33,645 bases of DNA from Catajapyx aquilonaris (lineage: Eukaryota), in assembly GCA_000934665.2 (NCBI GenBank), contig JYFJ02004246.1, forward strand, positions 1-33,645, read 5' to 3'. Within the stretch, counting starts at the first letter, position 1. Every line of letters starts with the position of its first letter. The translations under genes were made by a program, and so were the position numbers. The notes beneath the pieces were generated by a model. That model was not told the DNA's origin, ran no database searches, and was given only the letters and a program-made list of their open reading frames with translations. Shown here one piece after another: positions 2,509 through 33,645 of the stretch.

Positions 2509-3563
2509 AGGTAAGTGTCCCAGTGATGGACACGGTAAGGAAAAAAATTTACGTCGGACACTCTTGCCACGGGAATTGGTTTAAGAATTCCTCGAAAAAA
2601 ATATCGTTCAAATCATCGAGACTTGCTCTTTCATCCAATGCATACTCGTGCCACATTAAACAGGCTAATTTTGCATAAAAATGTTTTATATGCAAGTGTG
2701 AAAAGTTATGGACACCCAAAATGATGGCTGTTCTAGTTATGGACACCACTCATGTCTCAGTAATGGACAACCTCCATGTACTGTATTTACTGCTGTTATG
2801 TCAATATCATCAGGGAAGAGTAGGTTTTACGCCATGTCGGGTTAGTATAACTTAATGGAGTAATTAAATTTTATTCTGAATAATCATCCATTACAATAAT
2901 TATTTCATGTACATGGATGAATATTGAGTAACTGCACTTTAAATTTTTATAAAACACTTGTACACTGAAAATCAGAGCTGACTTTTTCATGAGCTTTCCA
3001 CTCACAAAGTAGGCCATGAATCGTAAACACGTGGGGAACAGGCAGGAGGCAGCCCCATGAAGGGATGTGACATATTGCCAGATTTACTATCAGGTTCAAA
3101 TACTTTTGGCCACTTTATCCTGAATGAAGCAACCCTTCGCACATACTCCATGTTAAGGAGGTGTGTGTGTGTGTGAAGGGTTGCTTCAAGACCAGGATAA
3201 AGTGGCCAAAAGTATTTGAACCCGATAGTACCACTTTCTCGCCACATTGCCGCATCCCTTGTTTTTTTAGCTGCCCAGTCTCGGGCGGTCTTGGGTGTCG
3301 ACTATGGCCCAATGTCTAATTGTCCAGATGGGGTGTCCATAATAAACCACTAAGAAAAGCACCATTTCAAGGCAAAAATGGGAGGTGATGTGTTCACGCG
3401 CTTCTCATTCACTAAGTAGGCCATGAATGGTACGCATGTTGCGATCAGCGAACCCCAAAGGGATGTGAAATTATGCCGGATGTCTCATTTCCACTCAATA
3501 TTGCCGCATTCCCTTGTTATTTAGGTTCCAAGACTCCGGTGTCCATCACTGGTACACCTACCT
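2509..3563. mobile_element. Non-autonomous TA-flanked DNA transposon with repeated ATGGACAC motifs
   Basis: TIRs AGGTAAGTGTCCCAGTGATGGACAC / GTGTCCATCACTGGTACACCTACCT with TA on both sides. Internal ~130-bp diverged direct repeat starting near 3007 and 3414. Confidence 0.7.
3087..3228. mobile_element. 142-bp hairpin MITE, copy 1
   Basis: About 58-bp inverted arms CTATCAGGTTCAAATACTTTTGGCCACTTTATCC..., TA flanks, (GT)n at the loop. Homologous to 5016-5156. Confidence 0.8.
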
Positions 3564-5015
3564 TACTTTTGATAACCACTATTAGTAAAATTCAAGTTAT
3601 TGCTCAAAAATAAGCAGCCTAAGGCCAAAAATTGCTAGGTAAAGCAAGCATTTCAACTGGAACACCTTTCATTGGTGGATTCGACTCACAGACCTAATTC
3701 CACATTGATTTTAAACAGTAAGATTAATACATCCACAAAGCAGAAATGAGTCAGATAAATACTGTGTACAAAACTCCTACATTATTAAAAAACTAATTAA
3801 TGCAAAGGGTCAAGGAGTTCAGGAACACAATATTATCAAAGTAACGCATGATGGGTTGATTTCCGTAAGTAGGGTATGACATTGCACAAAAATAACTGAC
3901 AAAAGCAAAATGTTGTGAAGGAAAATGGATCAATTCATAATTATTTTATGAGCACAGACCTTACTATATGAGCAAATTTTTTCTTATGATGGGGTCAGAC
4001 GAGACAATTTCAAAGTACAGTATTTTGTAAGTTTCATATTGTTAACTTTAGTAATCTCGCTTTTTTGGGGTTAAAAGTGACTTCAACATGGGTACAAGGT
4101 TACTTCAGAATTGGGATGCATATTCTAAATTGCTATTTTCAGCAATTCATAAAATCCTAATTTCGCAACTGTTTATAATATGACCTGATAGAAGAACTCT
4201 AAAAATTTTGTTCAAAACAAACCCAAACATGTAGTGTAAGAGTGAAATAAGAGCAGTTTTTCTTAAAAGTGTAAATCAAACACACTCCTTATGATTACAA
4301 CTGATTGTCAGAGATTTTGCAGAAGGGCTTGAAAGATGAGTGGAGTGACATGGTCAGTCACAACTTGAAACTGGGTAACACCACTCTCAGGAGGTCACAA
4401 TATTGCCAGTGGGTGCCACTATAGAAGTGGCAACCACACGTGTTTCTGCATCCATGAAAGCTGTTTCATAACACATTCATATGTAATATCTCTGAAACTC
4501 CCTCTTCAGAAAAAAGCTTCCCAAATTTCTCTCCTAATTAAAATGTTCAGGTTTTCGTTGAGTAAACTGTGATGAGAGAGTTACAATATTTCTTAATAAA
4601 AGCAATTTGCAAAATTACTTGCCTACAAGTGCCTGAAAGTATGTCTTAGAATGTGAATCCCAGGTCTGAAGGGGTCAGTACAGATGTCTTTTGACCATCT
4701 TGGAGGCTGCATGGTTTCATTGCCCATATCCACCAGTCAAGGTGGAAAGTGTTGTTGCAGGTCTTGTCTTCCCCAAGGATTTCAAATTTGGACTTTCAGT
4801 TTGTCATGGTTACCAAAACCAGCTGACAGGAGTGGATTTGAACCCTTGCTAGAGGGACCCCTTGATCCGTAAGGGAAACCTGTCATCAAGTTTGGCAATG
4901 CCACGTAACAATCCCATGATCCAAATCCATCCAAAAATGGGTGGGAGGGGTTACTACAAAAACAAACCAGTCTTGAAGACATGTGTGGAGACACCCAATC
5001 TTGAAAAACCTTGTA

Positions 5016-5156
5016 CTATTGGGCTCAATTAGTTCCAGCCACTTTATCCTGGTCTTGAAGCAACCCTTCGCACAGGCCCCACGGTGAGGTGTGTGTGTGT
5101 GAGAAGGGTTGCTTCAAGATCAGGATAAAGTGGTCGGAACTAATTGAACCTGATAG
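5016..5156. mobile_element. 141-bp hairpin MITE, copy 2
   Basis: Same family as 3087-3228; inverted arms and TA flanks. Confidence 0.8.
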
Positions 5157-5794
5157 TACTGCATGGTTGGAAAGACCCACCTAATTTTTATGTATGTGCA
5201 GTGTAAAAATGGTAAGTGAAATCATCCATAGTTTAGCAATGATAATTTAATACAGTGAGTGCCCATTATCCATGGTTTAATTATCTGAAGTTTGAAAATA
5301 TTGAATATATTTTAAAAACTGCATTTTAAAAATGCAGTGCGTAGAGTACATTTATTACAGTAGAATTCTGTATTGTTATAACTATCCTATTTTATTTTTT
5401 TGTTTTGTTGATGTCTCGATGCATATAGTTTGTAAATTGAAATGTATATGAAATAATGTATGCATAATGTAAATTATATACGGCTCGTTTTATCTACAGT
5501 TTCCACTTATCTGAAGGGGGAGGAGGGGGGGGGGGGCTCCCTATACACACACACACACATACATACTTTTCAATTATGTATCATCGTTTTGTTCAATACT
5601 GTCCAAAGAACCTTTGATCTAACATGCACTAACCCTTTGCAATGTCAAAGGCCTGTTTAATCATGTCCTAATTCTGACAAAACAGATCATAACTTTTTCT
5701 TTTTGCAGTCTCTCTCACATGCTATTCTATAGTTTATCCTCGAGTCCTTGATTGCAAGCAAAATGAGCACACAAAAAAGTGACTAGTGACTCAC

Positions 5795-5967
5795 AGGTCA
5801 GCACTACAAGTGCAGTTCTAAGCCCATAGTTGGCAATAGTCTCTATCTTGTCAGTTGGGAAGCACGGCTTCAGGCTGGGCCACATTATCTCGATGGGAAC
5901 ATAGAACTGAAGAGCATATGACAGGAAGATGCAGGCAGCCATTAGCAGTTTCACAGCCTGGGACAAC
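5795..5967 (-). CDS. SLC36: SLC36 proton-coupled amino acid transporter, internal exon (last one found in the window)
   Basis: LSQAVKLLMAACIFLSYALQFYVPIEIMWP...LRTALVVLT. Acceptor TTTCAG and donor GTGAGT; phase 2 in, matching the previous exon. The expected C-terminal TM exon(s) were not found in 1-5794. Confidence 0.93.
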
Positions 5968-6981
5968 CTGAAATTTCAGAAATGTGCATATGAATAATCA
6001 ATAACAAATAAACTCCAGAACAGATGGCTTCAGTAGAGTTCATATACACCCAAGAAAATGAATGTATGTCAGAGGCACATACTGTCAAGAGTACCTTCTC
6101 AATCTAACTTTAACTTCAATTCACTGCACTGCCAGCCAGTGATGCCTTAGAGTCCAATGAAACATATGTCGATGTTCATAAGTGGTTATCTCACATCTGT
6201 ATTAGTAAAAATCATCTCTCAAACTGTAATTTCTTGCTCCTGTCACCTCATCTTCCATTTTGGCAGTGCACTACTCATCATTGGAAAGCCCATTTAATAG
6301 GCTTTTCAACTTTGGCATGTATGATTCCATTCAAACCTTGAAGGTGGGGTCACACGGGCAATTGAAAATCACCAAAAATTATCGAAACCTGTGCCAACAC
6401 CAATCCTGAAACCTATTATTTTCACTATTAAATTCATGGATTCCATGATTATATATCCTTAAAGTAAGTGAAGAGAGAGTCCAAAATCATACATCCAAGT
6501 TTGGATGTTTTCCTTTTGGGAGTTGCAGGCTCCCAACCCAAAGAGCAAAGGTAAAATAATGTGTGAAAATGCATATTTGTTGCACCATGGCTTAAACTCA
6601 CATCACAGGGATAAGCAAACTCAGATGCATACATTGTGTACATAACATGAAAGCCACCTTCACATATCCCTATAAAATGGTAGTCAGTGAAGAGGAAGAT
6701 GCAAGGGTAAACGGTGCAATACGAAATACCAAATATGACCATAATAAGACATGGTCATGAAACAAGATGTGATGGATTATATGTACAGTGTGGTACAGTA
6801 CACTGCTTTAAGTTGACACCTCCACCAATGTGATAGTATAAAATGAAATGCCGTACTCACTCCAGTAGCACATGCATATTCCTACTGGTAGATCCCAAAC
6901 TGTACAGTTGCAGAATTGAGTGAGGTGTCAAGCCTGAAGCTCAAATTAACCTCCAAGAGAGGCGATCCTCCCCCTGAGACT

Positions 6982-7211
6982 TTATAATTGATATTAAGGA
7001 GGTTGGCCCAGCATTGCCTTTCAACCTCCAAGGATAGGGAAGGAAGGAAGCGGCTGTGGCCTATTATACGGAAGCAACCCAGGAATTATCCTAGGAAGAC
7101 CGTGGAAAACCACAGAAAACCACGGCCAGGGTTGCCGGCCCCGGGATTCGAACCCAGGACCTCCCGATTAGCAGTCGGACGCCCTATCCACTATGCCAAC
7201 CTGCTTCGGTG
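6982..7211 (-). mobile_element. tRNA-derived SINE, family C
   Basis: B box GGGTTCGAATCCC on the minus strand. 14-bp TSD CTCCCCCTGAGACT at 6968-6981 and 7212-7225. The body (GGAAGGAAGCGG..GTGGCC...GAAAACCAC) resembles SINEs I recall from hemimetabolous insects (unverified). Confidence 0.8.
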
Positions 7212-7534
7212 CTCCCCCTGAGACTGTGTACACGGCTCTGGAGAGTACATGCATGACTGAAGCAAGTAATCCATCCCATTTCACATCCATTGTTGGAGAT
7301 GTTAACTTTGGCAGGATACACTTGGTAAATACCATTGGAGAGCTCATTCAACACTCAGATATAGCTTCCTGCCACAACTGAATATGAGGCAACACTGGCA
7401 TGATCTGCAAAATTTTTACTGATACTGAATATGTTCAACAAAATACTCCATTATTTTATCTGAGAGAAAACCACAAAAGTAACACTAGTTGAAACTTATA
7501 AGATGAAATTATACAGACCACAAATAAAACTTAC

Positions 7535-7970
7535 ACATCAGCTTTTGGCAGATTAAGCGTGACGCTTCCCATGACAGTATCACCATACTGCAAGTATCCA
7601 AAAAAACCAATGGCTGCATAAAGGGAGGCTACAATGACCATGGCTGTATTAAGAACTCCAGAACATCCTCCAAGATCTTTGGGAGTCTTCATTTTGTTTT
7701 CAATGGGTAGGATGACACCAATTCCTTCAAATGCATATATGGCTGTGCCAAAGTAGAGGGGTAGTTGGGCCCAGGAGGCGAAAGCCTTGCGGGACGACAC
7801 AGGTGGCAGGTCTTGGACAGTGTAGTAGAGGATGATTCCAAGGCCCACGAACATGAAGCCATTGGCCACCAACGAGAAGGGGGCCAGGAATTTCAAGTTG
7901 CGAATGTAGTTGAGGAGGACCATCGGAATCAAGAACATCAGGATGTAGTAGTGGAAGTCAATTTCATTCC
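7535..7970 (-). CDS. SLC36: SLC36 transporter, internal exon
   Basis: NEIDFHYYILMFLIP...IRNLKFLAPFS...LPLYFGTAIYAFEGIGVILPIENKMKTP...GFFGYLQYG...GSVTLNLP. Acceptor TTCTAG and donor GTAAGT; phase 1 in, 2 out. Confidence 0.97.
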
Positions 7971-8149
7971 CTAGAAGTGAAGAAAGTGCTTTAAAAATGC
8001 AGTTTAAGACACTAAATACATAAGCTAAAATTATGTATGTAATAGATCACAAATGGTGTCAAATTATGTGGTGTTACAAATTTAGTATTTTCAAGCACAA
8101 AGCACTACAGGCACTAACTAAGATCTTATTGAGGGTGATGTCACCATTG

Positions 8150-8913
8150 CACAGTGTGTCCAAACGCGGGATTGCTTGGACAAAAATGGAAAAACCAAAT
8201 TGGTCGAATCGTGTCAAATCTGCCCTAATGTAAGAAAGTAATATCAGAACAATAATAAAAACCGCTTTGGTAGGTGCAATTGAGATGGGTTTCATACCAG
8301 GCAGGTACTCAAGTCGAGTGTTCGCCTGCCACCTTCTTGTGCCTATTCAGTCAGCTTCGAATGGTCATGGAAGAAAGGTCACCGCATTTCCAAATCCAGG
8401 CTGATCCGGATTTTAAGCTGTGCATAAAATACCTCTGGCTAAGTACTACTTACTGTCATGTAGCAATTTGAATGTGACCATGGAATATCGGTGCCAGGCG
8501 CTCCTTTGTTGAGGCCTCCATCACACGTATTTGTCACGTCATTGATTTGATTTCAAAGACAAAAAGTAACGGATTTCACAATATTTCACTTCGAATCACA
8601 TATTAAACGAAAGACAAGACTCCCCAGTTATAGACTCACTTTGTTTCAATTCCCCATAATGCCCCATTTTTCTAAAAGGAGGTCACATTTGTCAGGGCAG
8701 CATACTGCTACCCTGACAAAAGGTGCAATTATGTGCACTTAAAACAAAGTGAATCTATAACTGAGGAATCTAATAGTTTGTTTGGTGTGTCATTCAAAGT
8801 GAAATTCGCTACTTTTTGTCTTAAAAATCAGAGGAAAGTCATGATCCCATCGTGACAAATAAGTGTGGAGTGGGAGCCATTGTCCAAGCATTCACGTGTT
8901 TGGCCACACTGTG
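8150..8913. mobile_element. Non-autonomous Transib-like element with RSS-like TIRs
   Basis: Both ends begin CACAGTG; ~34-bp imperfect TIRs; exact 5-bp TSD CATTG at 8145-8149 and 8914-8918. No transposase ORF. Confidence 0.8.
8528..8861. repeat. Imperfect ~330-bp foldback inside the Transib-like element
   Basis: Successive inverted matches: TATTTGTCACG/CGTGACAAATA, AGACAAAAAGTA/TACTTTTTGTCT, CAGTTATAGA.TCACTTTGTTT/AAACAAAGTGA.TCTATAACTG, TTTGTCAGGG/CCCTGACAAA. Confidence 0.75.
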
Positions 8914-9297
8914 CATTGTGAAGGCTACTTTAATCTTCAAATATGAAATATGAATTTTTACCTTGAGTATCATAATACACACGAGATACATGGAGGTTTA
9001 ACTATTACTATTAAATCACTATGGCCACTTCAACTGGAACACATTATGTAATTACACTTAATATATGTGGAAAGTCTCGAGTCTTGATAGTGTTCCATAT
9101 CACAATCACTGATACAATCAATCATTCAATCAATGGCTTTATTTATTTAAGTTGGTCAGCCTGCACCAATGGCCACTTTCCCGACCAAATACAAATTCCC
9201 CATCATAATCTCAAATACAATCACAGCTAAATACTTAGTGAATTGTATAAACTATAAACTGTGCAATTAATGATTTCATTTTAAAACAACAACTCAC

Positions 9298-9529
9298 CTT
9301 TTCCTAGGTAATGATCCACCACCTGTTGCACATTTTTGGATATGAACACAATGTAGACACAACAGAACCCAAACTGAGTTATGCATAAAAAGACGTTCAC
9401 TATTCGCCGAGCCCAGGGGGAGAACCCACGTGTTTTGGATGGGCCAGACTTGAAGGCGTACTCAGCCACATCTGAGAAGTCAAGGGAAGCGCGTTGGGTG
9501 CGTCTGCACAGCTCATGTGAACATCTGAC
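9298..9529 (-). CDS. SLC36: SLC36 transporter, internal exon
   Basis: VRCSHELCRR...ARRIVNVFLCITQFGFCCVYIVFISKNVQQVVDHYLGK. Acceptor TTTTACAG and donor GTGAGT; phase 0 in, 1 out. Confidence 0.96.
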
Positions 9530-9805
9530 CTGTAAAATGAGACTGTAATTACAAAGTGCTACACCAGCAGTAAGAGTGAGTATAAAGGGAGATTTTGAAG
9601 TTCTTAGATAACATATTTTCAAACTACAAAACTACACTGTACTCCTGATTATCTGGACTAATGGCTGCACGGGGCTGTCACCGGATTATCGGAAAACACG
9701 GATTATAGGAAAATAGCCCTAGACACTGTAAAGTGAGCTATAATTGCTTAGCCTATTCACAGGTATTAAATGAAGGCCTGTACTGCTTTAAATAAGATTT
9801 AATCA

Positions 9806-10158
9806 GGGAGGCGGAGTGGTGCTGCGGTATCGCACGCACCCACGGATGTTAAGGTCCTGGGTTCGATCCCAGCCCGGGGTTCCCCCCTTCATCTTGTGCA
9901 GAGTTGGGCCATCACTGGCTTCGTCTCGGGTGGAAATTTCCGCTAGACTAATCCACCTGAGGAAGTTCACAAAATGACCAAGCAACGACATTGCACTTGC
10001 ACTTTGGACATCCCCTCCTACCTACCCTAATTGTGGCCGAACTAAATAATTGTAAAATTATACACAATACACATGGTTCCATATATGGTGGTATTCCCAC
10101 CCCCCTAAGAGGGCCTTTCGGCGCTAGCACGAGGTATCTTTGGGGGGGGGGGGGGAAA
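9806..10158 (+). mobile_element. tRNA-derived SINE, family A (variant 3' tail)
   Basis: A-box-like GTGGTGCTGCGG and B box GGTTCGATCCC. Body homologous to the copies at 11842, 14232 and 19428. Possible short TSD TTAATCA (9799-9805 / 10159-10165). Confidence 0.8.
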
Positions 10159-10251
10159 TTAATCAAAATTCTGGGAAAAGTCTGGTATACAGGGTGAAGG
10201 GAAACTCGCGTATAATCGCCAGGTAGACTGATAGTACTCGCAAAACTAATA

Positions 10252-10884
10252 CAGGGTGTATCAGAGTCACGGGTCAAGCGAGTGCGAGGTGGTGGGGAAA
10301 AATCGTAGGTGGCGACAACCCCGGTCGGTTTAATAAAACAATTAGGAATACGGCAGTAATCAATTTATTTATTATGGTCTACGGCGTGACGTCACGTCCA
10401 ATCAGTTTGAATCGAGTCAGGCAGGCTGGCAAGAGTCAAGGTAAGTTTGAACCTGGTTGAACGGGTTTTTAGCCTTGCGGTTGCACTGAAAAAGGCTACA
10501 CAATACACAGTGTACACACTACAAGTAGTGTGTTCAGTACCCTGCCGGTGTAGCCTTTTTCAGTGCTGAAAAAGGCTACACAATACACAGTGTACACACT
10601 ACAAGTAGTGTGTTCAGTACCCTGCCGGTGTAGCCTTTTTCAGTGCAACCCGCAAGGCTAAAAACCCGTTCAACCAGGTTCAAACTTACCTTGACTCTTG
10701 CCAGCCCACCCGACTCGATTCGATTCAAACTGATTGGACGTGACGTCACGCCATAGACCGTAATAAATAAATTGATTACTGCCGTATTTCTAATTGTTTT
10801 ATAAAACCGACCGGGGTTGTCGCCACCTACGATTTTTCCCCACCCCCCTCGCACTCGCTTGACCCGTGACTCTGATACACCCTG
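10252..10884. mobile_element. Young foldback MITE (Tc1/mariner-type, TA TSD) with a tandemly duplicated 80-bp apex
   Basis: Near-identical ~240-bp inverted arms starting CAGGGTGTATCAGAGTCACGGGTCAAGCGAGTGCGA; TA flanks. 10486-10565 is repeated at 10566-10645. Confidence 0.9.
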
Positions 10885-10890
10885 TATAGG

Positions 10891-11198
10891 GATGTGCAAT
10901 TAGTTTTGGGAGCCATTGCATAGTTAATGTGTAAGGCGCCGTCAAAGTTTCGTGACGTCACATCCGTTCCGCCAGCTTCTAAGAAGTAAAAGTCAGCTTG
11001 AGGCCTCCAAACAATTCAGCTTGGGTCCTTACACATAGTCCATGTGCAATAGGTGATCAAATCCCATCAGAGTAAGAATCCGAGTACGACACTTGTGCAC
11101 TTTGTTGTTTTTGCCTAATATTTTACCATCCGGCCCTCTACACTTTAAAGGCGCCGTACGCATTAACTACACAATGGAGTCAAAAAGTAATTGCACAT
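10891..11198. repeat. Older imperfect inverted repeat, probably part of a host MITE starting near 10190
   Basis: ATGTGCAATTAGTTTT..CCATTGCATAGTTAATGTGTAAGGCGCC pairs with GGCGCCGTACGCATTAACTACACAATGG..AAAAGTAATTGCACAT. The right outer end is not resolved. Confidence 0.5.
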
Positions 11199-11841
11199 TG
11201 TTTTGTAGTGAGAAAATCTTCACTTGGACACTACTGATCACTCGGTCCTAATACATTTTCGGTGGGAGAGAGTTCTGAACGACCACCGAAGTGTCTTCAA
11301 ACGCCCCACGCAGTCTGTTAGTTTGGGGGTACCTTATATTACGGCGGTATACCAACATCCCATATATGAAAGTACAGGAGTAAACAGCTCTGGTAGACCT
11401 AATAATTGCAGCATATACTCTGAACTCTGGGTGTAACTTCTTCCAAAATGATATGGTGAGTAACTGGCCCCACCCACTTCCTAGTTACATACCACTAATT
11501 TGCCACATCAGCCAACTATTTTTAAAAGTATTATTTTAGCATGATAATTTATGCACATCTGATGCTTGCTTAATTTTTTTAATGCCCATGGATCGTCAAT
11601 AGCCATAATAAAGTTACCCCCTGTGATCATGTATTTCGTAACATGTAAAACTTTTAGAAATGGCTAATACATCATAATGTAGACTATGTATGAGATACAA
11701 TAAGACATGGCAAATGCTTATACATAGTGCAGTAAACTGTTTGGTAATCACATCGTAATAATCATTGCGGAATTTACCATATTTAAAAAACTAATTAAAA
11801 ATGCTCAAATAACAAAGCATGTTATTGGTTGTGCTGGATGA

Positions 11842-12162
11842 TGGAAGATGAAGTGGCGCTGCGGTATCGCAAGCGCCCATGGATGGAAGGGTCCCGGGTT
11901 TGATACCAAGCCCGGGCATTCTCCCCTTTCATCTCGTGCGGAGTTCTCCAGTGGCATCTCCGGCTTCGTCTAGGGTGGGATTTCCGATAGACGAACCACC
12001 CGGGGGAGCTCACAAAATGTCCACAGCAGAGACATTGCACTTGCACATTGCACATCCCCTCCCAGTCACCCTGCCTTCAGACCAGGGCTCCAAATTAATG
12101 TGTACATCTTGGCAATCAAGGTCCGTGTCAAAACCTCAGATGAGGTACGGCACTACACCCCA
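11842..12162 (+). mobile_element. tRNA-derived SINE, family A
   Basis: Homology to the other family A copies. 18-bp TSD ATTGGTTGTGCTGRATGA at 11824-11841 and 12163-12180. Confidence 0.85.
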
Positions 12163-13372
12163 ATTGGTTGTGCTGAATGACACATTACCAACACATTACA
12201 AAGCGAGAGGGAGAGCAGGCCATGCTCCGAGTGACGTATTATGTGCAGAAGAAACTTGTTTAAGTCCGGCTGAGTGGCTATTAGACCTGGGGACATTTTT
12301 ACAATTCAGTTCTTGTAATATTACACACTAATAATGCATGAAACACAGGCAAGAACAAACGTGACATCATGATATGGCTTCCCTTTGGCCGGTTTCCATA
12401 TATCCAAACCTGCCCCAGCCCCCTCCTTGCAGGCCGACTGCAGCATTTGCCGTGTTTGCACCCGCCCTCAAACGGTGTTTGTTTTTTAGGTGATGCTGCA
12501 ACTTCGCAGACCTGGCGCAGGTAACTTGCAGATGGCAAGTACTTGCAGGCGGGTGCTCATTTTGCTGCCCTAAGACTTCCTCAATGAGTGGGATTTTCTC
12601 TTGCACTTTTGGTAACAATTCATATGCATGAACATACTGCGACTTTTTTTTGTTTTTGCAAAATCCACCATTAGCTGTTTTGACATGGAATGACCCAGTT
12701 TATAGTCGACACATGATGGCAGTGATATTTAGCAACTACTGGCTACAAATGTCATGTCAATCAAAGCATTTTTCAAACCATGTTGTTTTTGTAAGCCTAT
12801 GACACTTTCAGTCAAGTCAACTCTTTCAGCTGCTGGACCCTCCCTATAGACTCTTTCCTTACAAAAATCCCCACAGTGGCGAAAAAAAAGCGAAGGTTAC
12901 TCAGTTAAAGGTCCTGACTATGGTCAATGTGCTCCAAGGTACACCAATTTGAGACTTCGTGAGGGCAAGGTCCTCACCTGTTGCTACTATGTCATGCGTT
13001 TGTGAGTAACAGTAGCTAAAGATCTGTGCCATTATATGGCTCTGTTGATATTTAGGAATAATTCTTCAAACATTTTAAAGGCCACATGGCTAAAATGTGT
13101 GCATTTGTTCTGTGCTGAGGCCATGAAAATTAATTTTCTCAACAATGCAACACAGGCATTTGAAAACAGTTTTCATAACTATCCCTTCCAGGATGGATTT
13201 TGCAGTGTACCACAATAATTTTTTTAGCAGAAGTTCCCCATTATATTAGAAGAAAAAGTGAAACTCAGTTTTAAAATACCTGTATACCTATTCTCCAAGT
13301 AGTGACAATCTGTCTTGATTGTTGCGAGGTTGTAACTTTTCCACATTTCAAATGGCCACAGAATGCACTAGG

Positions 13373-13594
13373 TTGGTTGCCTGATTGAGGGAGCCAAAGC
13401 AACTAAGGGTACCTGGCATATAGGAGGGTGAGAAGGGACTGTGGGAGGAAACCCACGCAAACAGGGAGACAATCTCTCAAAACTATTTCCACAAGAGAAA
13501 GTATCCTCTGTCAGACCTGGGAATCGAACACAGGACCTCAGAGGTGGAAGGCTGTGACATTAGCCACTACACCACCATGCCGTACTGCCCATCA
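13373..13594 (-). mobile_element. V-domain tRNA-SINE (family B), internally deleted, different tail
   Basis: tRNA head homologous to the 20139 copy; truncated V core GCGTGGGTTTCCTCCCAC. 11-bp TSD AATGCACTAGG at 13362-13372 and 13595-13605. Confidence 0.7.
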
Positions 13595-13660
13595 AATGCA
13601 CTAGGAACTTGCCAGAATTTTAGTTTTAATTTTTATGACAATGGTAAATGAGCAGCCAAA

Positions 13661-14155
13661 TTTTTGAACTGGACGTGCTTGAGTTTAGACCAAGTTTAGA
13701 CAGAAATGGCGCAGTTTGAGGCTCACCGCTCCTACCACCTCGTGGAAGGGGGCTCAACTACTATGGCGTATGCTAATATGTTTTTCCGCCTCCCAGCGTG
13801 AGCTAAACATACCCCCTGCCTCCGCGTCAGAACAGGGTTACCCGTAAGTCTGGACTCTTATGAATTTCTCATAGTACAGTGTTTCAGTATCATTCTGTAA
13901 CCATAGTAACAATTTTATAGTGATTTTAAAATTTTAAATAAATTTAATTACCGGTACATTTAAAGTTAATTACACTTAATGTTTTTTCCTGGAACACCCT
14001 GGAGATGAATATTTTCGGCATTTTACATTCAAAAGGACCACCACGAGTTAAAATGATAAATTTGATACAATATTGTTTTTCATTAATATCACTCCTACTA
14101 CAAATTTTCATCGAGAAGAAAAAAAAACAGTCAAAAAAACTATGCCGTCAAAGGG
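13661..14155. mobile_element. Non-autonomous DNA element (piggyBac-like TTAA end), uninterrupted copy
   Basis: Colinear homology with 25860-26116 plus 27241-27452. Ends TCAAAGGG|TTAA; the left terminus was not identified. Confidence 0.6.
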
Positions 14156-14231
14156 TTAAACTGATATTTAATAAAATAAATGCTGATTGAGCAATGTGGC
14201 AACTCTGCCAATGGTATATTAAATGAGAAAT

Positions 14232-14578
14232 CAGGGGAGGCGGAGTAGTGCTGCGGTAACGTATGCGCCCACGGATGTTAAGGTCTCGGGTTTGATCCCA
14301 GCCCGGGGACACCCCCTTCATCTCGTGCAGAGTTCAGGGTCACCTCTCTTCGTCTCGGGTGGTATTTCCAATAGACTAAACCACCCGGGGGAGTTCACTA
14401 AAAATGGCCACATAAGGACATTGCACTGCACCTTGCACATCCCCTCCTGTCATCCTGCCCGTGGGCCCGGGCGTTTCAATTAGTAGGTTCCAATGTAAAA
14501 AAAATAGTACAATAAAGGTTCCGTGTGATATACCCCCACCAGCGGTGAAAGCACTTACCCAGGATTATTATTATGTAT
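14232..14578 (+). mobile_element. tRNA-derived SINE, family A
   Basis: Pol III boxes and (TTA)n tail. 15-bp TSD TATTAAATGAGAAAT at 14217-14231 and 14579-14593. Confidence 0.88.
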
Positions 14579-15654
14579 TATTAAATGAGAAATAATGCTT
14601 GCATGCCCTTTTAATGTTATGAAAATGTATTCACAAACAATGTGCTACTCTAAAAATTGGCCAACATTAGCAATTGTCCTAAAAATGACAATTCTGCCAC
14701 ATTGCTAGCACTTTCTGCGGCCATTGAAAATAGGAAAAAAATTACACATTCTTTGCTTTCAAGCCCAGGTTTTAACTACTTAAAGGACAGATATCTAAAA
14801 ACTGAGTTTCCCTTTTTCATATAAAATTCATTAGGAACAATTTAAACATTATTGTGGTACACCATAAACTTCATCCTGGTAGGTAACCTTTCAAATAACC
14901 TCGTAAGATGCAATTTAAAATGTTGATGGCAAAGTCATGAATTCGTGACTCTTAATCTCGACAGGAACATCTGCAAGCGGAGTCGGAAATAGCCCCCTGT
15001 CATGGTACCACTTTCTAGGAAAATATTGCAATATAGCTCCAAGTAGTGTATTTACACATTATAAATGCCACAATCAAAATGCAAGAGAGTGAACTGCACT
15101 GCCCAAGTCCACAGTCCAAAAGGAGGGAAAAAGTTGTGTATTGTTTACCTCGGAAACCACTGAAAAGATGTGAAAACATTTGGAAGAAACAATCAGCATC
15201 ACATTTACTTGTGAATTATTACTGATATAGAAACTGGTTCTGGAGTAAGCATTAGATAATTTCCTCATCTAGGCCCTACCCCACTTTTGAACTGGAGACC
15301 TGGGCAGTGCATCACCCTGTAAAATGGATGGCATTATTATGTCCTGCTCCTGTTACATGTAGATTCATAATGCTACTAATAAATGAGAACACACAAATAC
15401 AACTGCATTTTTTTGTCTCATTCACATAGTTCATGGGACATAACAATCACTTATGAATCCAATTTTAGCCTGACCAAGAAGAACTACTCAGGCTGCAATT
15501 AACCTTGTGACCATTGAATGTGCTCTATTTTGCTGTCGCACACAACACATTAATACGTTTCAGTGACAAGTGAATAGTTGATCGTCAGGCATTGATCAGG
15601 GAAAAAACAATGAAAAAACCTTAACAATACTGAAAAGGAAAGACTATTACTCAC

Positions 15655-15805
15655 CAACATATGCATGCAGTGTGTGCAAATGAGACCCATGATTAAAATT
15701 CCAAATGTTCCAACAAAAAGGCCTGCATTCTTCAATGCATCTGGCATTGCTAATATTCCAGTTCCGATGTTTCCCTTCAAAATGTGAATTAAAGTGTCGC
15801 AGTTA
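15655..15805 (-). CDS. SLC36: SLC36 transporter, internal exon (TM1-2)
   Basis: NCDTLIHILKGNIGTGILAMPDALKNAGLFVGTFGILIMGLICTHCMHML. Acceptor TTTTTGTTCTAG and donor GTGAGT; phase 2 in, 0 out. Confidence 0.97.
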
Positions 15806-15921
15806 CTAGAACAAAAAGATATACACTTTTAGTATTTATGAAATCCTTTACCCAAGTGAATGCAACAAATTAAGTGACACTATGTTGTAAAGTTTCAACA
15901 GTTTTAATCTGTATACATATA

Positions 15922-18033: not shown

Positions 18034-19427
18034 GGCAAATTGATATGTAAAGAGGTGTGTGGTTTACTGGCTGTAGATCTGAACAGCAACTGCCTTCAAA
18101 CTACATGAAAGCACTCAATAGCCTTGGTATTCCCTATTACCTCCCAGCCTAATTGCAATTCCAGACAGCATCACCCTTTTACGAGTCACCAATCAGGTGT
18201 AAAATAAAGCTGAAGGTCAATTACCACATTTACCCCATGCATGGGGTAGCATGACATATGGTACATTTTCTACTCTGATCTGATAATCAATTGTTTGTGA
18301 CATTTTTCTGACAAATTCCTAAAGAATAGAAGTCATCAAACTCTTCCTCTCGAAGGTCGTCGACATAGTATTGGTAAGTCACTTACTATCTTGAAAATTT
18401 CAGCATAGAGAGTCATTGTCCGAGTCTCAAAGCAGTTTTATGTGCGTTTTTTTTTGGAAGTGGCAGAATAAAGGATTTTTTTCCATTTTTTTTCAGGAGA
18501 AGTGAATGAACACAGGCTCAATGAGCAGCCATTACCCACAAGTGCAGTAATCTTATGGGTTATGGCTGCTCATCCAAACTGCTATTCAACATTAAAAACG
18601 GCACAATTTTCTTATTTCATCATCTTAACTTCAGTCTACTGAGGAAAGGAACTACATCAAAGAACACCCCTCAATAGCAGTAGCCACATGTATTGTAAAC
18701 AAAAACAATGGGATAATCAAAATTGCTAGGCCAACTAGTGTTGAGGTCAATACTTACAACCTTCTGAAAAAAAAGGGCACGTGTACACTTTGCAAAGGTC
18801 ATGTGCCAGACAACTCGATAGTAACCATGACCCCATCGCAATGTGAACATGTGCCGTTTTTTCTGTAGGATGAGAGAATACACTCCATCTGGCTAACAGC
18901 AGAAGATATCACTAAATTTTCATAATAGTGTGCAAGGTCAAGATGTTTCTTTCTGGAGTATGACTTCATTGTAACTGCTCCATTTACTTTGTAATTTGTA
19001 GTAAGCCCATAATAAAATGTGTCAAATGACAGGTTCAAATAATGCACTTTATTTGACACCCAAGCCAATAATACAGTAAAACCTGTGTATTGGAGAATCC
19101 CACGGGCCCCTAAAATCTTCCTGTAATGGACAAGTTTTGGTATATTCAGATCAAGGACGTTAGTGAGATTTTTTTGCCGGGAAGAAAGAGATGACAATGG
19201 GGAGAGCAAAAATAAGCACCTTACCTCCATATGGAGCAAAATCTGTCCACACAGTAGAGTATTTAGGCCCTTAAGCTTTACCGTGCTACATTTTTGTGGA
19301 ATAGCCTGGAGTGTAGACGTGTAGTAAAAGGGGGGCAATTTCATTGCAGTTGAAAATGTCCTCCTTGGAATAGCCCGAACAAATGCTCTCCACCTTCTCC
19401 TTCCAATTTTCTACTTCTTTGAGATTG

Positions 19428-19741
19428 GGGATGCGGAGTGGCACTGCAGTAACATTTGCGCCCATGGGTGTAAGGGTCCCAGGCTTTTCCCCCTTCATCT
19501 CGTGCAGAGTTGGGTCATCTCTGACTTCGTTTAGGGTGAGATTCCTTGAGACTAACCACCCAGGGGAGCTCACAAAATGTACCATTACAGACATTGCACT
19601 TGCACTTTGCACATTCCCTCCCACTCATCCCTGCCCGTGGCCCCAGGCACTTCGCCAAAGGTTCCAGTCGTGTACAAGTGTACATTAAGACAATAATAAA
19701 GGTCCGTGCAATACCCCAAGAGGGGTCTAAGCACTACCTGG

Positions 19742-19780
<39 letters not shown>

Positions 19781-22934: not shown

Positions 22935-25900
22935 ATCTTATTATTTTACCTTTTTTCTTGTTTTCTCTTTCTTTTCTGCCTTTCTCCTCCACCACTGCCA
23001 GGGAGAAAAAAAATGCATGCACAGCCACCTTTTAGTTTGTGCATTACAGTGCCATGCACATCTCTACCACTTATCTCTTACCCGGCATGCAAAACCTTTC
23101 CTCCAACAAGCTTTCACCTCTAAACCACTCACATATAATAATAAAAGACACTTTACGGACTATAACCTACATGAACTGTTACTAGTTACATATGGGCTGG
23201 AGAAGCATTAAATAACTGAAAACAACTAATAATTAGGTCTTCATAGGCTAATAGTAGTAGAAAAAAATTAATGATATGCAAATCATTTCAATTTATATTT
23301 TTCTCTCTTTAAAAGTCAAATGCTTGCAAATAACATGTCCCTTACTTCACTTGCCAAAATGATAGTTTTGTAATTCGTCTCCATGTTTGCTAGACAATGT
23401 GGTGAACACTCAAGCGTTGCCACGAGTTTTGCACATGTCACTGCAGCTGCTAAACTAATGTAGCAGCTGCTTTAACACCAAGGTAATCTGGCTTGCAGTT
23501 TCATTCTCAGCACTTCTTATACATTATATCCTTAATACAATAATCCAACCACCCATCAACAGTTCATACATTATTAATGAGCACTTCATTCCAAATGCGG
23601 TAGGTTATGACACGTGCATATATATATCGTCCATAACATTTGACTTGTTAAGAAGCTACTGTACATGCAATTTTTGCCCTCCCTCATTGAATATGGCAAT
23701 GGAACAAAAATTACACTTTCTTTTTAACAGTCACAAAGTTCTAGCTTACACCAGTGCCCTGCATAACCAGGAAAGTATCAATGTCACATGACACTTACCT
23801 AGGTGACAAAAAAAGTGGGCGAATCAGGTGGAGTCAAGTACAAGGTATGTTGTGAAAAGAAGATAGCAGCTATCATGTATACTCCTGCACGTTCAATATC
23901 TGATGACAACACACTGATAGGTAACAATTAATGCAACCAGGAATTATACGGGATCAAAGTGGAGTATCTCTTCACCTCACTTCACTTCCCTCGAGACTAA
24001 TGTTACAGACAGATCAGGAAATGTGAAGAGGTCCAGAAGCTTCATCACCAAATGACTTGTGATTGGATGCCATAAAAATGACACATGAGACTGACTGTCT
24101 GCTTTGGAATATATTGGTCAACAGACAGTTTTTGTGCAACCTTAGATCCTTTGCTGCCTGAACCGAAATTGATAAGGATTCACATCAAAAGCATGTGGAC
24201 ATGACCTTGCCCTCATACCAACACTCTCAAAGGCAGACAAAAAAAAGGATATCAGTTTTTATGTAATCAAAGTTCATAATTGGACTTTGAGGCATGCCAC
24301 AACACTTCATCATTAAGATAGAGAGCCAGTGTTTGGTAATATTTGATGGCCTTTAATAAGAAAAAATTGAATCATTATTTGTTAAAAAGTAGGGCAAGAG
24401 TAAAGGTCAGCTCCTGATTAACTTTTATTCTGCAATTGTCAGTCATCAGCTTTTGCTGTTGACTGATAAGAGCGACCCTCCCATAAATGACTCACCATCC
24501 ACTCAAAAGCTTATCAGGGGCAGACAAATGTTTCAAACATACAACCACAATTTGATTTCTTTTGTTGACTTCACAAGCAACCAGACAGTGATGCCACACT
24601 TATTGAACTGAGCAATCGTCACACATCAATTGTTTAATCACATCATTAAAAATGCTGGGGGGCCAAAATATTATCCTGTCACACAAATGATATGACAAAG
24701 AACCAAAAAACATGTTGACTCAAATGCAAAACATTTTCAACATATAATTTTCATGATAAGTTCTCATGTGACTCTGAGGTCATAAAAATGTACAGGAATG
24801 GTGGCAGAATTTCAATTTTTCTCATCCTACAATCATTTTACATTACAGTGTAATCCACAGACCAAATCTAGGGACGACACATTTTAATGCACTTTATTTG
24901 TATCAATCTCAACAAGATATGATGACAGAATTTTCACTATTATTACTTGCAGATAAAAATGAGTTGTCATCATTACTCTACATTTTCTAAAAATGAACAA
25001 TTCATCCTTCAAGGATGCTACTATATTAATTCACTTTAAATAACATTGAGAATGAATTCTCATTTAATTTGAACCACAATCATGACAAAGTACCAACAGT
25101 GTCATATATTCACACAGTGAAAGTGATAATTACACCTGGCAGAATAGCTAATTGAGGGGTTAAACTGGTTAAAAGGTCATAATATTTCAGTGAACAGTGT
25201 TGTGCAATTGAACATTATGGTGGAGGTCATGCCCATTCTGGGCTCACTAGTCACAAGTTAGAACTTGTGGCTAAAACATGATTACTCCAGTAGAAGACCT
25301 TCGGCCTACTCTGCATGGCCACATCATTATGACGTTAGTAGTGTACGTAGCAAAAAAACTTGCCCTGAGGCAAAACTGTGTAATATTTGGTTAAATACTT
25401 AAATAGGCAAGAAAATCTACTCCACTTGAATCTAAAACATTTGAACATTTGTGCAACTAGCCTGAAACTTTATTCATAATGTTGCAGCATTTTTCATAAA
25501 AATATGAGGGGTGTGTGATCCGGAATTTTCATTGCAGTGCTCATTAATTAATGATTACAAAGTTTCAGCTATAACTCACAGCAAAATTAAATTAGCATGC
25601 AGATGTCAAGACTGTCTGTAGCTGTACTAGCCATAAAATTTATGACTTGAGAGCTCAACTTAAGATGATAAACGGCAATAAAGTTTGCAACCTTTGGCCC
25701 AGTATGAAGCAAACAGACAGAAAAAAACTTTAAATGCTGCCATTACTGACACCTAAGAAGATCTCTCATAGTTATAAATTTTTTTTTGAAGGGTGCTGGT
25801 TAGATTTGTTATGTTAAACCCTTTGAGGCCTACAATTATCATATGATTATCTGCAAGTTTTTGAACTGGGTGCGCTCGAGTTTAGACAGAAATGGTGCAC

Positions 25901-26116
25901 TTTGAGGCTCAAACTGCTCCTACCACCTCGGGGAAGGGGGCTCAACTACCATGGCGTATCCTAATCAGTTTTCCCACTTCCCAGCGTGAGCTAAACATAA
26001 CCCCTCCCACGGCGTTAGAATAGGGTGTCCCGTAAGTCTGGACTCGTAGGAATTTCTCACAGTACAGTGATTTAGTATTATTTTGTAACCATAGCAACAA
26101 TTTTATAGTGACTTTA

Positions 26117-27237
26117 GGGCCGATTTCTCGAACAGTGGTTCAAATGTAAACAAGGTTCAAGTCCTGTTTGAACCCAGTTCAGAGAAATTTCCATTTCTCG
26201 AGGCAAAAGTAAACCATGGATACGGTTTAAACTCGGTTCACATCTGACGGCCCGATTGCCGGCCGTTATCTGAAATAAACCGGGTTTGGAATGCCGGGAA
26301 CAACAATGAAAGGTGTCATTTTTTGACTAGTTGCCGACGTTTTTATGGCACTTTTCGGACGCCAAAAAATTCCCCCTGTGAACCCTGCATAGTGCACATC
26401 TTTGTCTATCTAATGATATATTTGAAACTTATAAATCACAACTATGTGTAATCATAATTAAGTTAATTGCACACCTCAGTTATCTCGGCCGTTTCTCATC
26501 CGAATTACTTCGCGAATGTATCGACGGCAAGCCAGAAATGTGCGTGATAAAATTACATTGTGCTCTATTACACTGAAATTTTTAAAAGTATTGTTTTAGT
26601 AAGTTTAATAGACAAGTACTCAGCCCGATTTCTGGAGGGAATAGACGGCGATACTTTTAAATACGTTTAAAAATTTTAGTGTAGTACTATGTAATTTTAT
26701 CACGCACATTTCTGGCTTGCCGTCGATACATTCTCGAAGTAATTCGGATTATAAACGGCCGAGATAACAGAGGTGTGGAATTAACTTAATTATGATTACA
26801 CAAATGGCGATTTCCGAGTTTCAAATATATCATTAGAAAGACAAAGATTTGCACTATCCAGGGTCCACAGTGTGAATTTTTTGGCCTATGAGAAGTGTCA
26901 TAAAAAATTCATTTTGCGGCGTAACGTCGGCAACTAGTCAAAAAATGTCACTTTCAAATGCGATGTCCCTCACTCCACCTTCGAGACTTGCTGACTAGAG
27001 TTTGTTTACAAGCCGGTAAAGACTCGCGCTGAAGCTCAGACCGGTTCGGGGAAATGGGAAGGACGCGACATGTGGCAACGGCGCAATTCTAACAGAGGCT
27101 TGTTGTTCACATAGTAACCGAGGGTTTGTTTAAGCTCGAGAAATGCTCACACTCGGAAGGGGAGTTTAAACTGCATCCAGCGTGTAGACGCAAACTCAGT
27201 TCAAACTGACTTGAACCACTGTTCGAGAAATCGGCCC
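26117..27237. mobile_element. PIF/Harbinger-type non-autonomous element
   Basis: Perfect 27-bp TIRs GGGCCGATTTCTCGAACAGTGGTTCAA. 3-bp TSD TTA at 26114-26116 and 27238-27240. The empty site is visible near 13925. Confidence 0.85.
26307..26956. repeat. ~650-bp foldback inside the Harbinger-type element
   Basis: About 285-bp inverted arms, e.g. CATTTTTTGACTAGTTGCCGACGTT / AACGTCGGCAACTAGTCAAAAAATG and ATGTATCGACGGCAAGCCAGAAATGTGCGTGATAAAATTACAT with its reverse complement. Confidence 0.85.
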
Positions 27238-28029
27238 TTAAAGATTTAAATAAATTTCATTACATAAGTTAATTGCACTTTAATTTTTTTCTGGAACACC
27301 CTGTAGATGAATATTTTTGGCATTTTACATTCAAAAGGACCACCACGAGTTAAAATTATAAATATCGGAGCATATTGTTTTTCATTAATATCACTCCTAC
27401 TACAAATTTTCATCACGAAAAAAAAGGCAGAAAAAACTCCGCAGTCAAAGGCTTAAAATTATATCACCTCCCTGCACAATGATCTACTTTTTGTATACAC
27501 ACCTTAGTCAGCACAACGCAATTTACATGTTGAAAATTTGAATTTGATTTTACGAAATTTCACAAAAAGGCAAAGTATCAGAACATCCATTTTATTCACA
27601 TTCTGCAGGTGGTATTTTGCAAGAATCCCTCGGATATTTTAAAAATTAAAAGTGAAACAGTTCTCACTTTATCAGTGTTATAAACATCCTAAAAAATTGG
27701 AATTGGATGACTCATACTTGCATACAAAACAACAGTTCATTATACTTTCACTTTGTTCTGACACCAACTCAAGACAGTATGTAGCAAGATGCCTACATAT
27801 AGACTAGTAGCACCTGGTATTGTCCCACTATTAGTTTGTTTTCACTGACTTACTGGTTGTTAGTTTATCCATATGGAAGCTTAAAGGAGAAACTCACCAT
27901 ATGCAGGGAAACACTAGTAGCAAGGTAACAGCGAGACAAAGTATTAGTGTAGGCCATAAATTGGGACACAACTTGTAATTCAACACTGCCGAGGAGGGTA
28001 TCATTTACTTCAATTGCAGTAATAACTTA

Positions 28030-28155
28030 GGGCCGGTTTCACCGAGCTCGGTATATGATAAAACCAGGGTTATTTCGGAAAATCCCTACATATTTGTATG
28101 GATTTTCCTAAAGAAACCTGGTTTTATCATATACCGAGTTCGGTGAAACCGGCCC
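28030..28155. mobile_element. 126-bp near-perfect hairpin MITE, PIF/Harbinger (Tourist)-type
   Basis: GGGCCGGTTTCACCGA...TCGGTGAAACCGGCCC with TTA TSD at 28027-28029 and 28156-28158. Confidence 0.85.
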
Positions 28156-28852
28156 TTAGTCAAAAAACAAATTCACAAGTCATACATTGCATCAACAGCA
28201 GCGATACTTCAACAATGAGCAACTATAAAGTAGCCCCTCAAGTAAACTTGCAACGGCGAATCAAGGTCTGACATATGGAACGCCACAGCTCGAATGGCAA
28301 CCATGTGATCTGTCCGATTACTGACTGACAACTATTCATTTACAGAAAACCTCATAATACCACTTCATTAGCATAACTGCAAATGAGGTCAAAGTGCAGA
28401 CATAAAAATGTACGCGAATCCTACCACACACTGCCAACAATTTTATTAATTCCCTTGCACGTGTCACTCCCTGCTTAGGGGTCGTAATCCTTACATAAGT
28501 TAAATCCGGGGTCTGCATAGGTGAAAGCAATCCGCTTATCTCAAGTGTCAATGGGGAGGGAAAAAAACACACACACACATAATACATGCAACAGACACCT
28601 CACCATGCAGGACAGTTCCTCCTGCTGGAAGTCTCCAGTCCCCACCCCTCCTCCAGTCCCGTTTCCTGGATTCACATGTATGTAGCGTTGCCCTGGGGAA
28701 TTTTGGTGCTCTGTGGCAGGTCCCCTTTTGATATACAGGGCAGCGCAGCCAGATCAGATGACCATGGGTAGTTATATCGCATATAGGCTTTCGCACATAG
28801 ATGTTGGATAATGTGGACAAAAGGGTATGATATGTGATATGAATTTACACAC

Positions 28853-28930
28853 CTGAACCGGTAGGTGGACACAGACTGAGAATGTGTGTGTAACACCTGC
28901 CGTCAGATGGCGATAGAAACGATGGCGCCT
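28853..28930 (-). promoter_or_regulatory. Candidate SLC36 promoter and short non-coding first exon
   Basis: Arthropod Inr TCAGTC (28879-28874) lies 25 nt before a possible donor CAG|GTGTGT, with two CGCCATC motifs just upstream. It sits near the CpG-poor to CpG-normal transition. Confidence 0.3.
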
Positions 28931-32947: not shown

Positions 32948-33645
32948 GCTGCCATCCCAAAAGCATCTTTCCTGGATCTTTCAAACAACCGTTTGATGTC
33001 CCTGGGATCCACCTTTGCACCCATCCTTGCTCAGCAGCTGGTGAAGCTTGACCTTAGCAAGAACACCCTTCGTGACCTTCCTGACAACTTTGGAGACCTC
33101 CGTTCTCTACGCCATCTGGATTTAGATAGCAACCGAATTGAACGTCTGCCACTCAGCTTCAGTCGCCTTGTCAATCTTCGCTGGCTGGACCTCAAGAGTA
33201 ATCCTCTAGTGCCTCCTCTCAGGGAAAAAGCAGGTGACTGCCTGGATGCAGGGCAGTGTCAGCGATGTGCACGAGATGTAGTTGCATTCCTGCAGACAAT
33301 GCAACTGTCGTACGACCAGCGCCTGGAGGAGTTACTTCGGGAGCATTCAGAGATGGCAGCAGCAGAAGTGGCAGCCGCCATGGTTCCAAATCAGCCGAAA
33401 CCTAAGCCGAAGCAGCGGAAGAGCAAGAAGAAGAAGTCGGGCAATGCTGATGACCTGAAACAGCACCACAATGGCAACACAGCAGATGGTTCCGATACCC
33501 CAGATCAATGTGATGTTCCAGCTACTCGTAGTTTTGCTTACACCACTGGGAAGGGCAAAAACAAGCCAACCAAAAAGCCGGTGCCACCCAACTCACTGCA
33601 ATTAACAACTCCTCCTCCTGCCTCCTCATGGCTGCGTTCATTTCT
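32948..33645 (+). CDS. LRRC59: LRRC59 coding exon 2 (runs off the window)
   Basis: Acceptor TTTCTAG. AAIPKASFLDLSNN...LVKLDLSKNTLRDLPDNFGDL...LRWLDLKSNPLVPPLREKAGDCLDAGQCQRCARDVV, i.e. LRRs plus the GDCLD..QC..CA cap, followed by a Lys-rich linker. Open to the window end. Confidence 0.95.

Follow-up and report, generated by a model that had tools for sequence, protein, structure and literature searches.

Is the short stretch bounded by CACAGTG heptamers at this locus a mobile element, and, if so, what does the resemblance of its left end to a V(D)J recombination signal sequence (RSS) signify? We addressed this question within a 33,645-nucleotide stretch of DNA, referred to here as the window, in which an initial annotation had described a non-autonomous Transib-like element with a 5-bp target-site duplication (TSD), a symmetric 23/23 arrangement of RSS-like ends and an unusually canonical left end. 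We conclude, with a probability of about 80%, that positions 8150-8913 constitute a single non-autonomous (MITE-like) cut-and-paste copy belonging to the Transib superfamily, which was inserted at CATTG in an intron of an arthropod SLC36-like gene.

The element is 764 bp long and is flanked by two identical copies of CATTG, the left one at positions 8145-8149 and the right one at 8914-8918; the reconstructed empty site reads gtcacCATTGtgaag. A repeat finder and a scan with a 34-nt pattern placed the terminal inverted repeats (TIRs) at 8150-8183 on the plus strand and 8880-8913 on the minus strand. These 34-nt repeats are identical at 30 of 34 positions, with mismatches at TIR positions 10, 17, 20 and 23. 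Beyond TIR position 34 the two ends are no longer alike, and positions 35-40 all differ. When the window was searched with the 34-nt pattern derived from both ends, the only matches were those two ends, and none of 100 dinucleotide-preserving shuffles contained two or more matches to it. In addition, the whole window was scanned for CAC...GTG pairs that are flanked by an exact 5-bp TSD and share TIR identity of at least 15/20; the element was the sole match, and 20 shuffled sequences yielded none. On re-reading, the coordinates given in the initial annotation for the element, its ends and the CATTG duplication all proved exact. Its description of the element as non-autonomous and Transib-like likewise stands, in that this is a TIR transposon without coding capacity that carries published end, TSD and target features of Transib. 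Two other Transib-like pairs in the window, at 6423-13922 and 23792-29040 (13/20 each), were rejected as chance occurrences because one of them spans host exons, their similarity ends after 20 nt, and 2 of 20 shuffles also reach 13/20.

To describe the surroundings of the element, all 193 stop-to-stop open reading frames of at least 55 amino acids in the window were compared with Pfam. The matches consisted of host exons encoding Aa_trans and leucine-rich-repeat (LRR) domains, together with three weak, sub-threshold ones: a Tc5 helix-turn-helix (HTH) at 250-456 on the plus strand (19.8 bits, below the cut-off of 22.2; E = 7.7e-4), Sigma_M_inh at 10576-10899 and DUF4325 at 30330-30494. Two open frames on the minus strand that encode parts of an Aa_trans/SLC36-like protein lie on either side of the element, one at 7531-8046, downstream of it with respect to the gene (PF01490, E = 2.4e-28, profile positions 108-270), and the other at 9281-9631, upstream of it (PF01490, E = 2.7e-14, profile positions 37-119). 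The element therefore resides in an intron of an SLC36-like transporter gene. Further Aa_trans exons, also on the minus strand, were matched at 15550-15828 and, weakly, at 5730-5975. Four exons of this SLC36/'pathetic'-like proton-coupled amino-acid transporter are thus recognized, separated by introns filled with repeats and distributed over 10 kb or more, and the element occupies the intron that separates the second from the third of them. The organism-named best matches of the transporter exon were all arthropod proteins, which identifies the host as an arthropod; the top identities (64-69%) belonged to proteins of copepods and brine shrimp and to unnamed records, and the host is probably a crustacean. 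At the far end of the window, the first part of a leucine-rich-repeat protein is encoded on the plus strand at 32948-33643 and runs off the window end.

No open reading frame in or around the element matched any Pfam family, and no RAG1/Transib-like or other convincing transposase was recognized by Pfam among the 193 frames of the window. For a Transib transposase this negative result carries little weight, because such proteins are described as able to escape domain databases (preprint 10.64898/2026.08.26.747230). A search of the whole window against Rfam likewise returned nothing inside the element. Its sole match was a tRNA at 7133-7204, a minus-strand, tRNA-Ser(GCT)-like sequence within an intron of the transporter gene (Rfam tRNA, 38.4 bits; also ARAGORN), which could be a genuine tRNA gene or else form the head of a SINE derived from a tRNA.

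We then considered the features by which the element can be classified. Kapitonov & Jurka 2005 (PMC1131882) describe 5-bp TSDs as unique to Transib among the superfamilies of eukaryotic DNA transposons. In that description, which covers 21 families, the 38-bp TIR consensus consists of CACAATG, a variable 23-nt spacer and then AAAAAAATC; conservation extends to the CAC and to the A's that correspond to RSS nonamer positions 5-6, and most families are RSS23-like at both ends. The same paper describes non-autonomous Transib families as common, gives the targets of Transib-N1_AG and Transib-N2_AG as cCASTGg and cCAWTGc, respectively, characterizes Transib targets as GC-rich, and reports the discovery of Transib in arthropods (PMC1131882). 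A more recent account lists a CARTG 5-bp TSD for the Nozomi/Kodama Transib family and describes MITE-like non-autonomous Transib derivatives; this source also shows that members of Transib differ in TSD length and in their termini (preprint 10.64898/2026.08.26.747230). We accordingly treat such features as supportive and not strictly diagnostic. Non-autonomous DNA transposons are classed in Repbase by terminal and TSD features, under a rule that combines equal TSD length with alignment of terminal positions 1-11 to a classified member with at most one mismatch (PMC4455052).

The element has both the 5-bp TSD and the CAC start by which Transib is recognized, and each of its heptamers agrees with the consensus CACAATG at 6 of 7 positions. 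Its target, cCATTGt, fits the cCAWTGc of Transib-N2_AG, CAWTG accounting for 0.34% of the 5-mers in the window. We file the element under Transib because its 5-bp TSD, CAC start, 6/7 heptamer, 34-nt TIR, left A-run and CAWTG target match the published signature. Several observations count against this assignment: there is one copy, no transposase is linked to the ends, the right end has no A-run, the internal sequence shows no relation to any known Transib, and the target is not GC-rich (43% GC in the 35-bp target region against 40% in the window), whereas Transib targets are reported to be so.

The RSS-likeness of the two ends was examined separately. The left end consists of the heptamer CACAGTG (8150-8156), a spacer of 23 nt (8157-8179) and the nonamer-like block ACAAAAATG (8180-8188), which extends 5 nt past the part of the TIR that is common to both ends. 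This block agrees with the RSS nonamer ACAAAAACC at 7 of 9 positions, including the A at nonamer positions 5 and 6, and with the Transib consensus also at 7 of 9. Read inward from 8913, the right end has CACAGTG, 23 nt and then ACAATGGCT, which shares 5 of 9 positions with the RSS nonamer and 3 of 9 with the Transib nonamer; four of the five RSS matches are contributed by ACAA, a part of the shared TIR tail. At TIR positions 34-35 this single copy reads AA on the left and AT on the right, so the right end has T where the conserved nonamer A would stand and is without an A-run, which may reflect either decay or a true difference between the ends. A 3-nt deletion was considered as the cause of the missing A-run at the right end and was rejected, since just three more bases (TGG) can be aligned in this way, which is too few.

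The expectation for such matches was estimated from the window itself. Among the 67,228 positions of the two strands, 166 (0.25%) agreed with ACAAAAACC at 7 or more of 9 letters, and 6.8% agreed at 5 or more. Counting both ends and both canonical spacers ±1, a nonamer of the type seen at the left end would arise by chance with a probability of a few percent. A second 7/9 match at the left end, GGAAAAACC, lies at a spacer of 31, which indicates that the left subterminal stretch is simply A-rich. CACAGTG occurs ten times in the window, and it is followed by a nonamer of at least 7/9 at a spacer of 12 or 23 at the left end of the element alone. We read the A-run that follows the left heptamer at a distance of 23 nt as the usual nonamer-like block of Transib. 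The heptamer, the 23-nt spacer, the 7/9 nonamer on the left and the 5/9 match on the right, as originally reported, were all borne out. The proposed symmetry of the 23/23 layout holds for the heptamers and the 34-nt TIRs but does not extend to the nonamers, given that the right end has no A-run and the likeness stops at TIR position 34. The suggestion that the left end is unusually canonical was not sustained, as a heptamer, a 23-nt spacer and an A-rich nonamer are the published consensus of the 21 Transib families.

A 5-bp TSD and a CAC start are common to Transib and to the RAG-like transposons (RAGL; RAG1L-RAG2L, ProtoRAG-type), and they therefore do not discriminate between the two. RAGL elements are described as having CAC-starting, heptamer-like TIRs along with the 5-bp TSD, and non-autonomous members exist (Martin et al. 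2020, PMC7204232). The element could in principle be a non-autonomous derivative of such a transposon, and not of a classical single-gene Transib, but we regard this origin as very unlikely. The RAGL/ProtoRAG elements of deuterostomes, molluscs and nemerteans resemble the element in their TSD, CAC start and non-autonomous copies but differ from it in TIR consensus: the protostome RAGL consensus, CACTWMCAAACKTYKBB, matches the left end at 6 of 17 positions and the right end at 5 of 17, and the AAA conserved in RAGL at positions 8-10 is absent, the element reading TGT and TGG there. In the RAGL survey, TIR similarity is limited to about 15 bp and the nonamer is not relied on, whereas the left block of the element, at 23 nt, typifies Transib; the survey also names Arthropoda among the phyla in which no RAG-like sequences were found, whereas the present host is an arthropod (PMC7204232). 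This last point bears equally on the proposal that a V(D)J-like system of the host uses the left end as a functional recombination signal, a reading that we find scarcely credible. Its appeal lies in the exact heptamer, the 23-nt spacer and the 7/9 nonamer with A at positions 5 and 6. The site, however, is in a transporter intron with no adjoining receptor gene segment, the phylum is one for which that survey found no RAG-like genes (PMC7204232), and an inverted twin together with a TSD is the anatomy of a transposon end, with the full layout present at the left end only.

Membership in another superfamily that can generate 5-bp TSDs, such as Ginger2/TDD, an atypical CACTA/Mirage/Chapaev element or an atypical hAT element, appears unlikely. 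In its favor, elements of the CACTA group also start with CAC. Integrase-type elements such as Ginger end in TG...CA, but redrawing the ends of the present element as TG...CA, or moving them further outward, leaves no TSD, which argues against a Ginger-type reading. Ginger2 is reported to make TSDs of 4 or 5 bp (Kojima & Bao 2023, PMC10045372), and TSD length is described as variable within lineages (preprint 10.64898/2026.08.26.747230). The preprint, however, gives TSDs of 2-4 bp for CMC elements, and hAT elements are characterized by 8-bp TSDs and by G, not C, at terminal position 3 (PMC1131882). In addition, the combination of heptamer, 23-nt distance and A-run with a CAWTG target fits the published Transib families specifically (PMC1131882). 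We also weighed an origin without mobility, in which a chance or local inverted repeat, for example a palindrome formed during replication or repair, would be flanked by a fortuitous direct repeat. The single copy seen, the long palindrome that makes up part of the interior and the abundance of palindromic DNA in the window are all compatible with such an origin. It is extremely unlikely, however, as an inverted identity of 30/34 abutting an exact 5-bp repeat never arose in shuffled sequences, and the ends of the remaining palindromes in the window are of other kinds (TA-type or TACTATC), these palindromes themselves looking like MITEs.

Having weighed these alternatives, we compared the element, taken as a non-autonomous Transib copy, with well-described relatives. 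Its closest counterparts are insect families without a transposase gene, namely Transib-N1_AG, -N2_AG and -N3_AG of Anopheles gambiae and Kodama/'Hopper' of Drosophila melanogaster. According to their published descriptions, which are the sole basis of this comparison, these families share with it a 5-bp TSD of the CANTG type (CASTG, CAWTG and CARTG, compared with CATTG here) and RSS23-like TIRs that start with CAC, theirs being about 37-38 nt long. The element differs from them in its heptamer, CACAGTG as opposed to the consensus CACAATG. Kodama is given as about 1.4 kb, compared with 764 bp for the element, the interior of which, a long palindrome plus a unique segment, is unlike that of an obvious internal-deletion derivative of the insect Transib families. 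HzTransib of Helicoverpa zea is characterized biochemically and structurally; no transposase is associated with the present element. The two would be alike in a nick-hairpin cut at the CAC border, inferred for the element, and in a strand transfer staggered by 5 bp; they differ in that the TIRs of HzTransib are described as having 'little or none' in the way of nonamer similarity (PMC4840297), whereas the left end of the element reaches 7/9. The vertebrate V(D)J 23-RSS resembles the left end in the exact CACAGTG, the 23-nt spacer, the 7/9 nonamer and the A's at nonamer positions 5-6. The left end is unlike it in belonging to a transposon, as its TSD and inverted partner show, and in lying within an intron of an arthropod gene with no receptor gene segment adjoining it; the right end of the element has no nonamer above chance.

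A route by which the element may have arrived can be proposed by analogy with HzTransib, for which RAG-like nick-hairpin cleavage is reported (Carmona et al. 2016, PMC4840297; also preprint 10.64898/2026.08.26.747230). A RAG1-like DDE transposase, supplied in trans by an autonomous relative that is either elsewhere or now lost, would bind both ends, nick the DNA at the border between CAC and the flank, convert the flanking DNA into hairpins and so free a blunt-ended element. The two 3'-OH ends would then be joined to the target strands at points staggered by 5 bp, and the CATTG duplication would result from repair of the gaps. What is observed at the locus is the product of insertion, that is, TIRs and a TSD with no gene. 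The autonomous partner that the initial annotation placed elsewhere in this genome is conjectural, no RAG1/Transib-like frame having been recognized in the window. Given four mismatches over the 34 TIR positions, this may be an old copy, and the partner may be extinct.

The interior of the element is asymmetric. Alignment of the arms against each other delimited a segment of about 338 bp (8184-8521) that is confined to the left side, with nothing equivalent in the right arm, and whose overlapping open reading frames matched 0 Pfam families. This is followed by a long internal inverted repeat at 8522-8867, identified by the repeat finder and the arm alignment and centered near 8704, and by a 12-nt linker (8868-8879) that leads, in the arm alignment, to the right TIR. 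The arms of the internal repeat are roughly 80% alike, with indels, and contain mirrored GACAAA motifs; in the whole arm alignment, 162 of 198 aligned positions are identical. Folded as single-stranded DNA, the element gives z = -12.5 relative to shuffles, a strong fold that is attributable to its inverted repeats. We tentatively take the palindrome at 8522-8867 to be part of the element and not a second, nested one, since no TSD flanks it (TCCAT compared with GAGTG) and the likeness of the arms continues outward, fading and with gaps, to the TIRs. Possibly, this was originally a foldback-like MITE whose left arm was later enlarged by about 326 bp.

In an unbiased scan of 6-mers, GACAAA ranked first among 567 in the element, with seven copies compared with 0.57 expected. 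Four of these lie on the plus strand (8179, 8558, 8715, 8854) and three on the minus strand (8530, 8688, 8815). The same hexamer is the inner motif of the TIR and the start of the left nonamer-like block. The enrichment is inflated because the internal palindrome mirrors copies, most of which are accounted for in this way, leaving about four that are independent. The right arm alone holds three (p = 5.6e-4, uncorrected for the roughly 200 k-mers compared). Judged from sequence, the internal copies may be putative accessory binding sites for the transposase.

Repetitiveness is a hallmark of transposon families, and within the 33.6-kb window the element was seen as a single copy. A search of the window with a 16-nt end pattern, allowing up to three mismatches, returned just the two ends, with a chance expectation of 1.25, and a blastn comparison of the complete element with the window returned the self match, arm-to-arm matches and TIR matches, the remainder having E values of 0.9 or above. 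The 34-nt TIR pattern gave 0 matches in bacterial and archaeal contigs, a result that has no bearing on the host genome. A full-text search of a limited set of literature for the first 16 nt of the element found no paper in which they are printed.

Since 2005, textbooks have drawn on the likeness of Transib ends to the 23-RSS to argue that V(D)J recombination originated from a transposon. As a known hallmark of Transib, the RSS resemblance seen here is unsurprising, and one more RSS23-like Transib end adds no new principle, so that the importance of the element extends little beyond annotation. It does mark past Transib activity in an arthropod genome, and its ends can serve to probe for the family and for the transposase that goes with it. 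Work on nonamer recognition by RAG1-like transposases would gain modestly from a TIR logo built genome-wide, though only if this logo showed conservation of the A-run (positions 31-37) and of the internal GACAAA copies. A far more consequential reading is that the element represents an undescribed Transib/RAG lineage of crustaceans or other arthropods with true bipartite ends, composed of heptamer, 23-nt spacer and nonamer, and with accessory GACAAA sites; in its boldest version, this would be a RAGL transposon in a phylum from which none is known. We consider such a lineage very improbable. Were it real, its transposase would read the nonamer as vertebrate RAG1 does, and it would provide a protostome model for the origin of nonamer recognition.

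Apart from this element, the window is unusually rich in repeats of the foldback type. A near-perfect foldback/MITE-like palindrome of 639 bp, at 10249-10887, has arms that are 88% alike and ends that read ATACAGGGTG..., and an exact tandem duplication of 80 bp (two units, 10486-10646) lies at its center. Another palindrome, at 1391-1796, is bounded by a related end, TATACNNGGTG. Both of these look like MITEs of the Tc1/mariner type, which we presume them to be, and not like Transib. A 147-bp palindromic MITE-like family with ends reading TACTATC... is represented by two copies, at 3085-3230 and 5013-5159, and two further, unrelated palindromic elements are located at 26307-26956 (650 bp) and 28025-28160 (136 bp).

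The window also contains interspersed repeats whose copies are 71-87% identical to one another, at 9788-10019, 11852-12075, 14219-14459 and 19427-19760; the repeat at 13693-14167 falls within the same range of identity when compared with 25879-26116 and 27238-27464. Open reading frames running through these interspersed repeats matched no Pfam family. Near the start of the window, the weak Tc5/pogo transposase HTH at 250-456 adjoins a repeat at 459-814 that is similar to the sequence at 19071-19426, and the two together are possibly decayed remnants of a pogo-like transposon.
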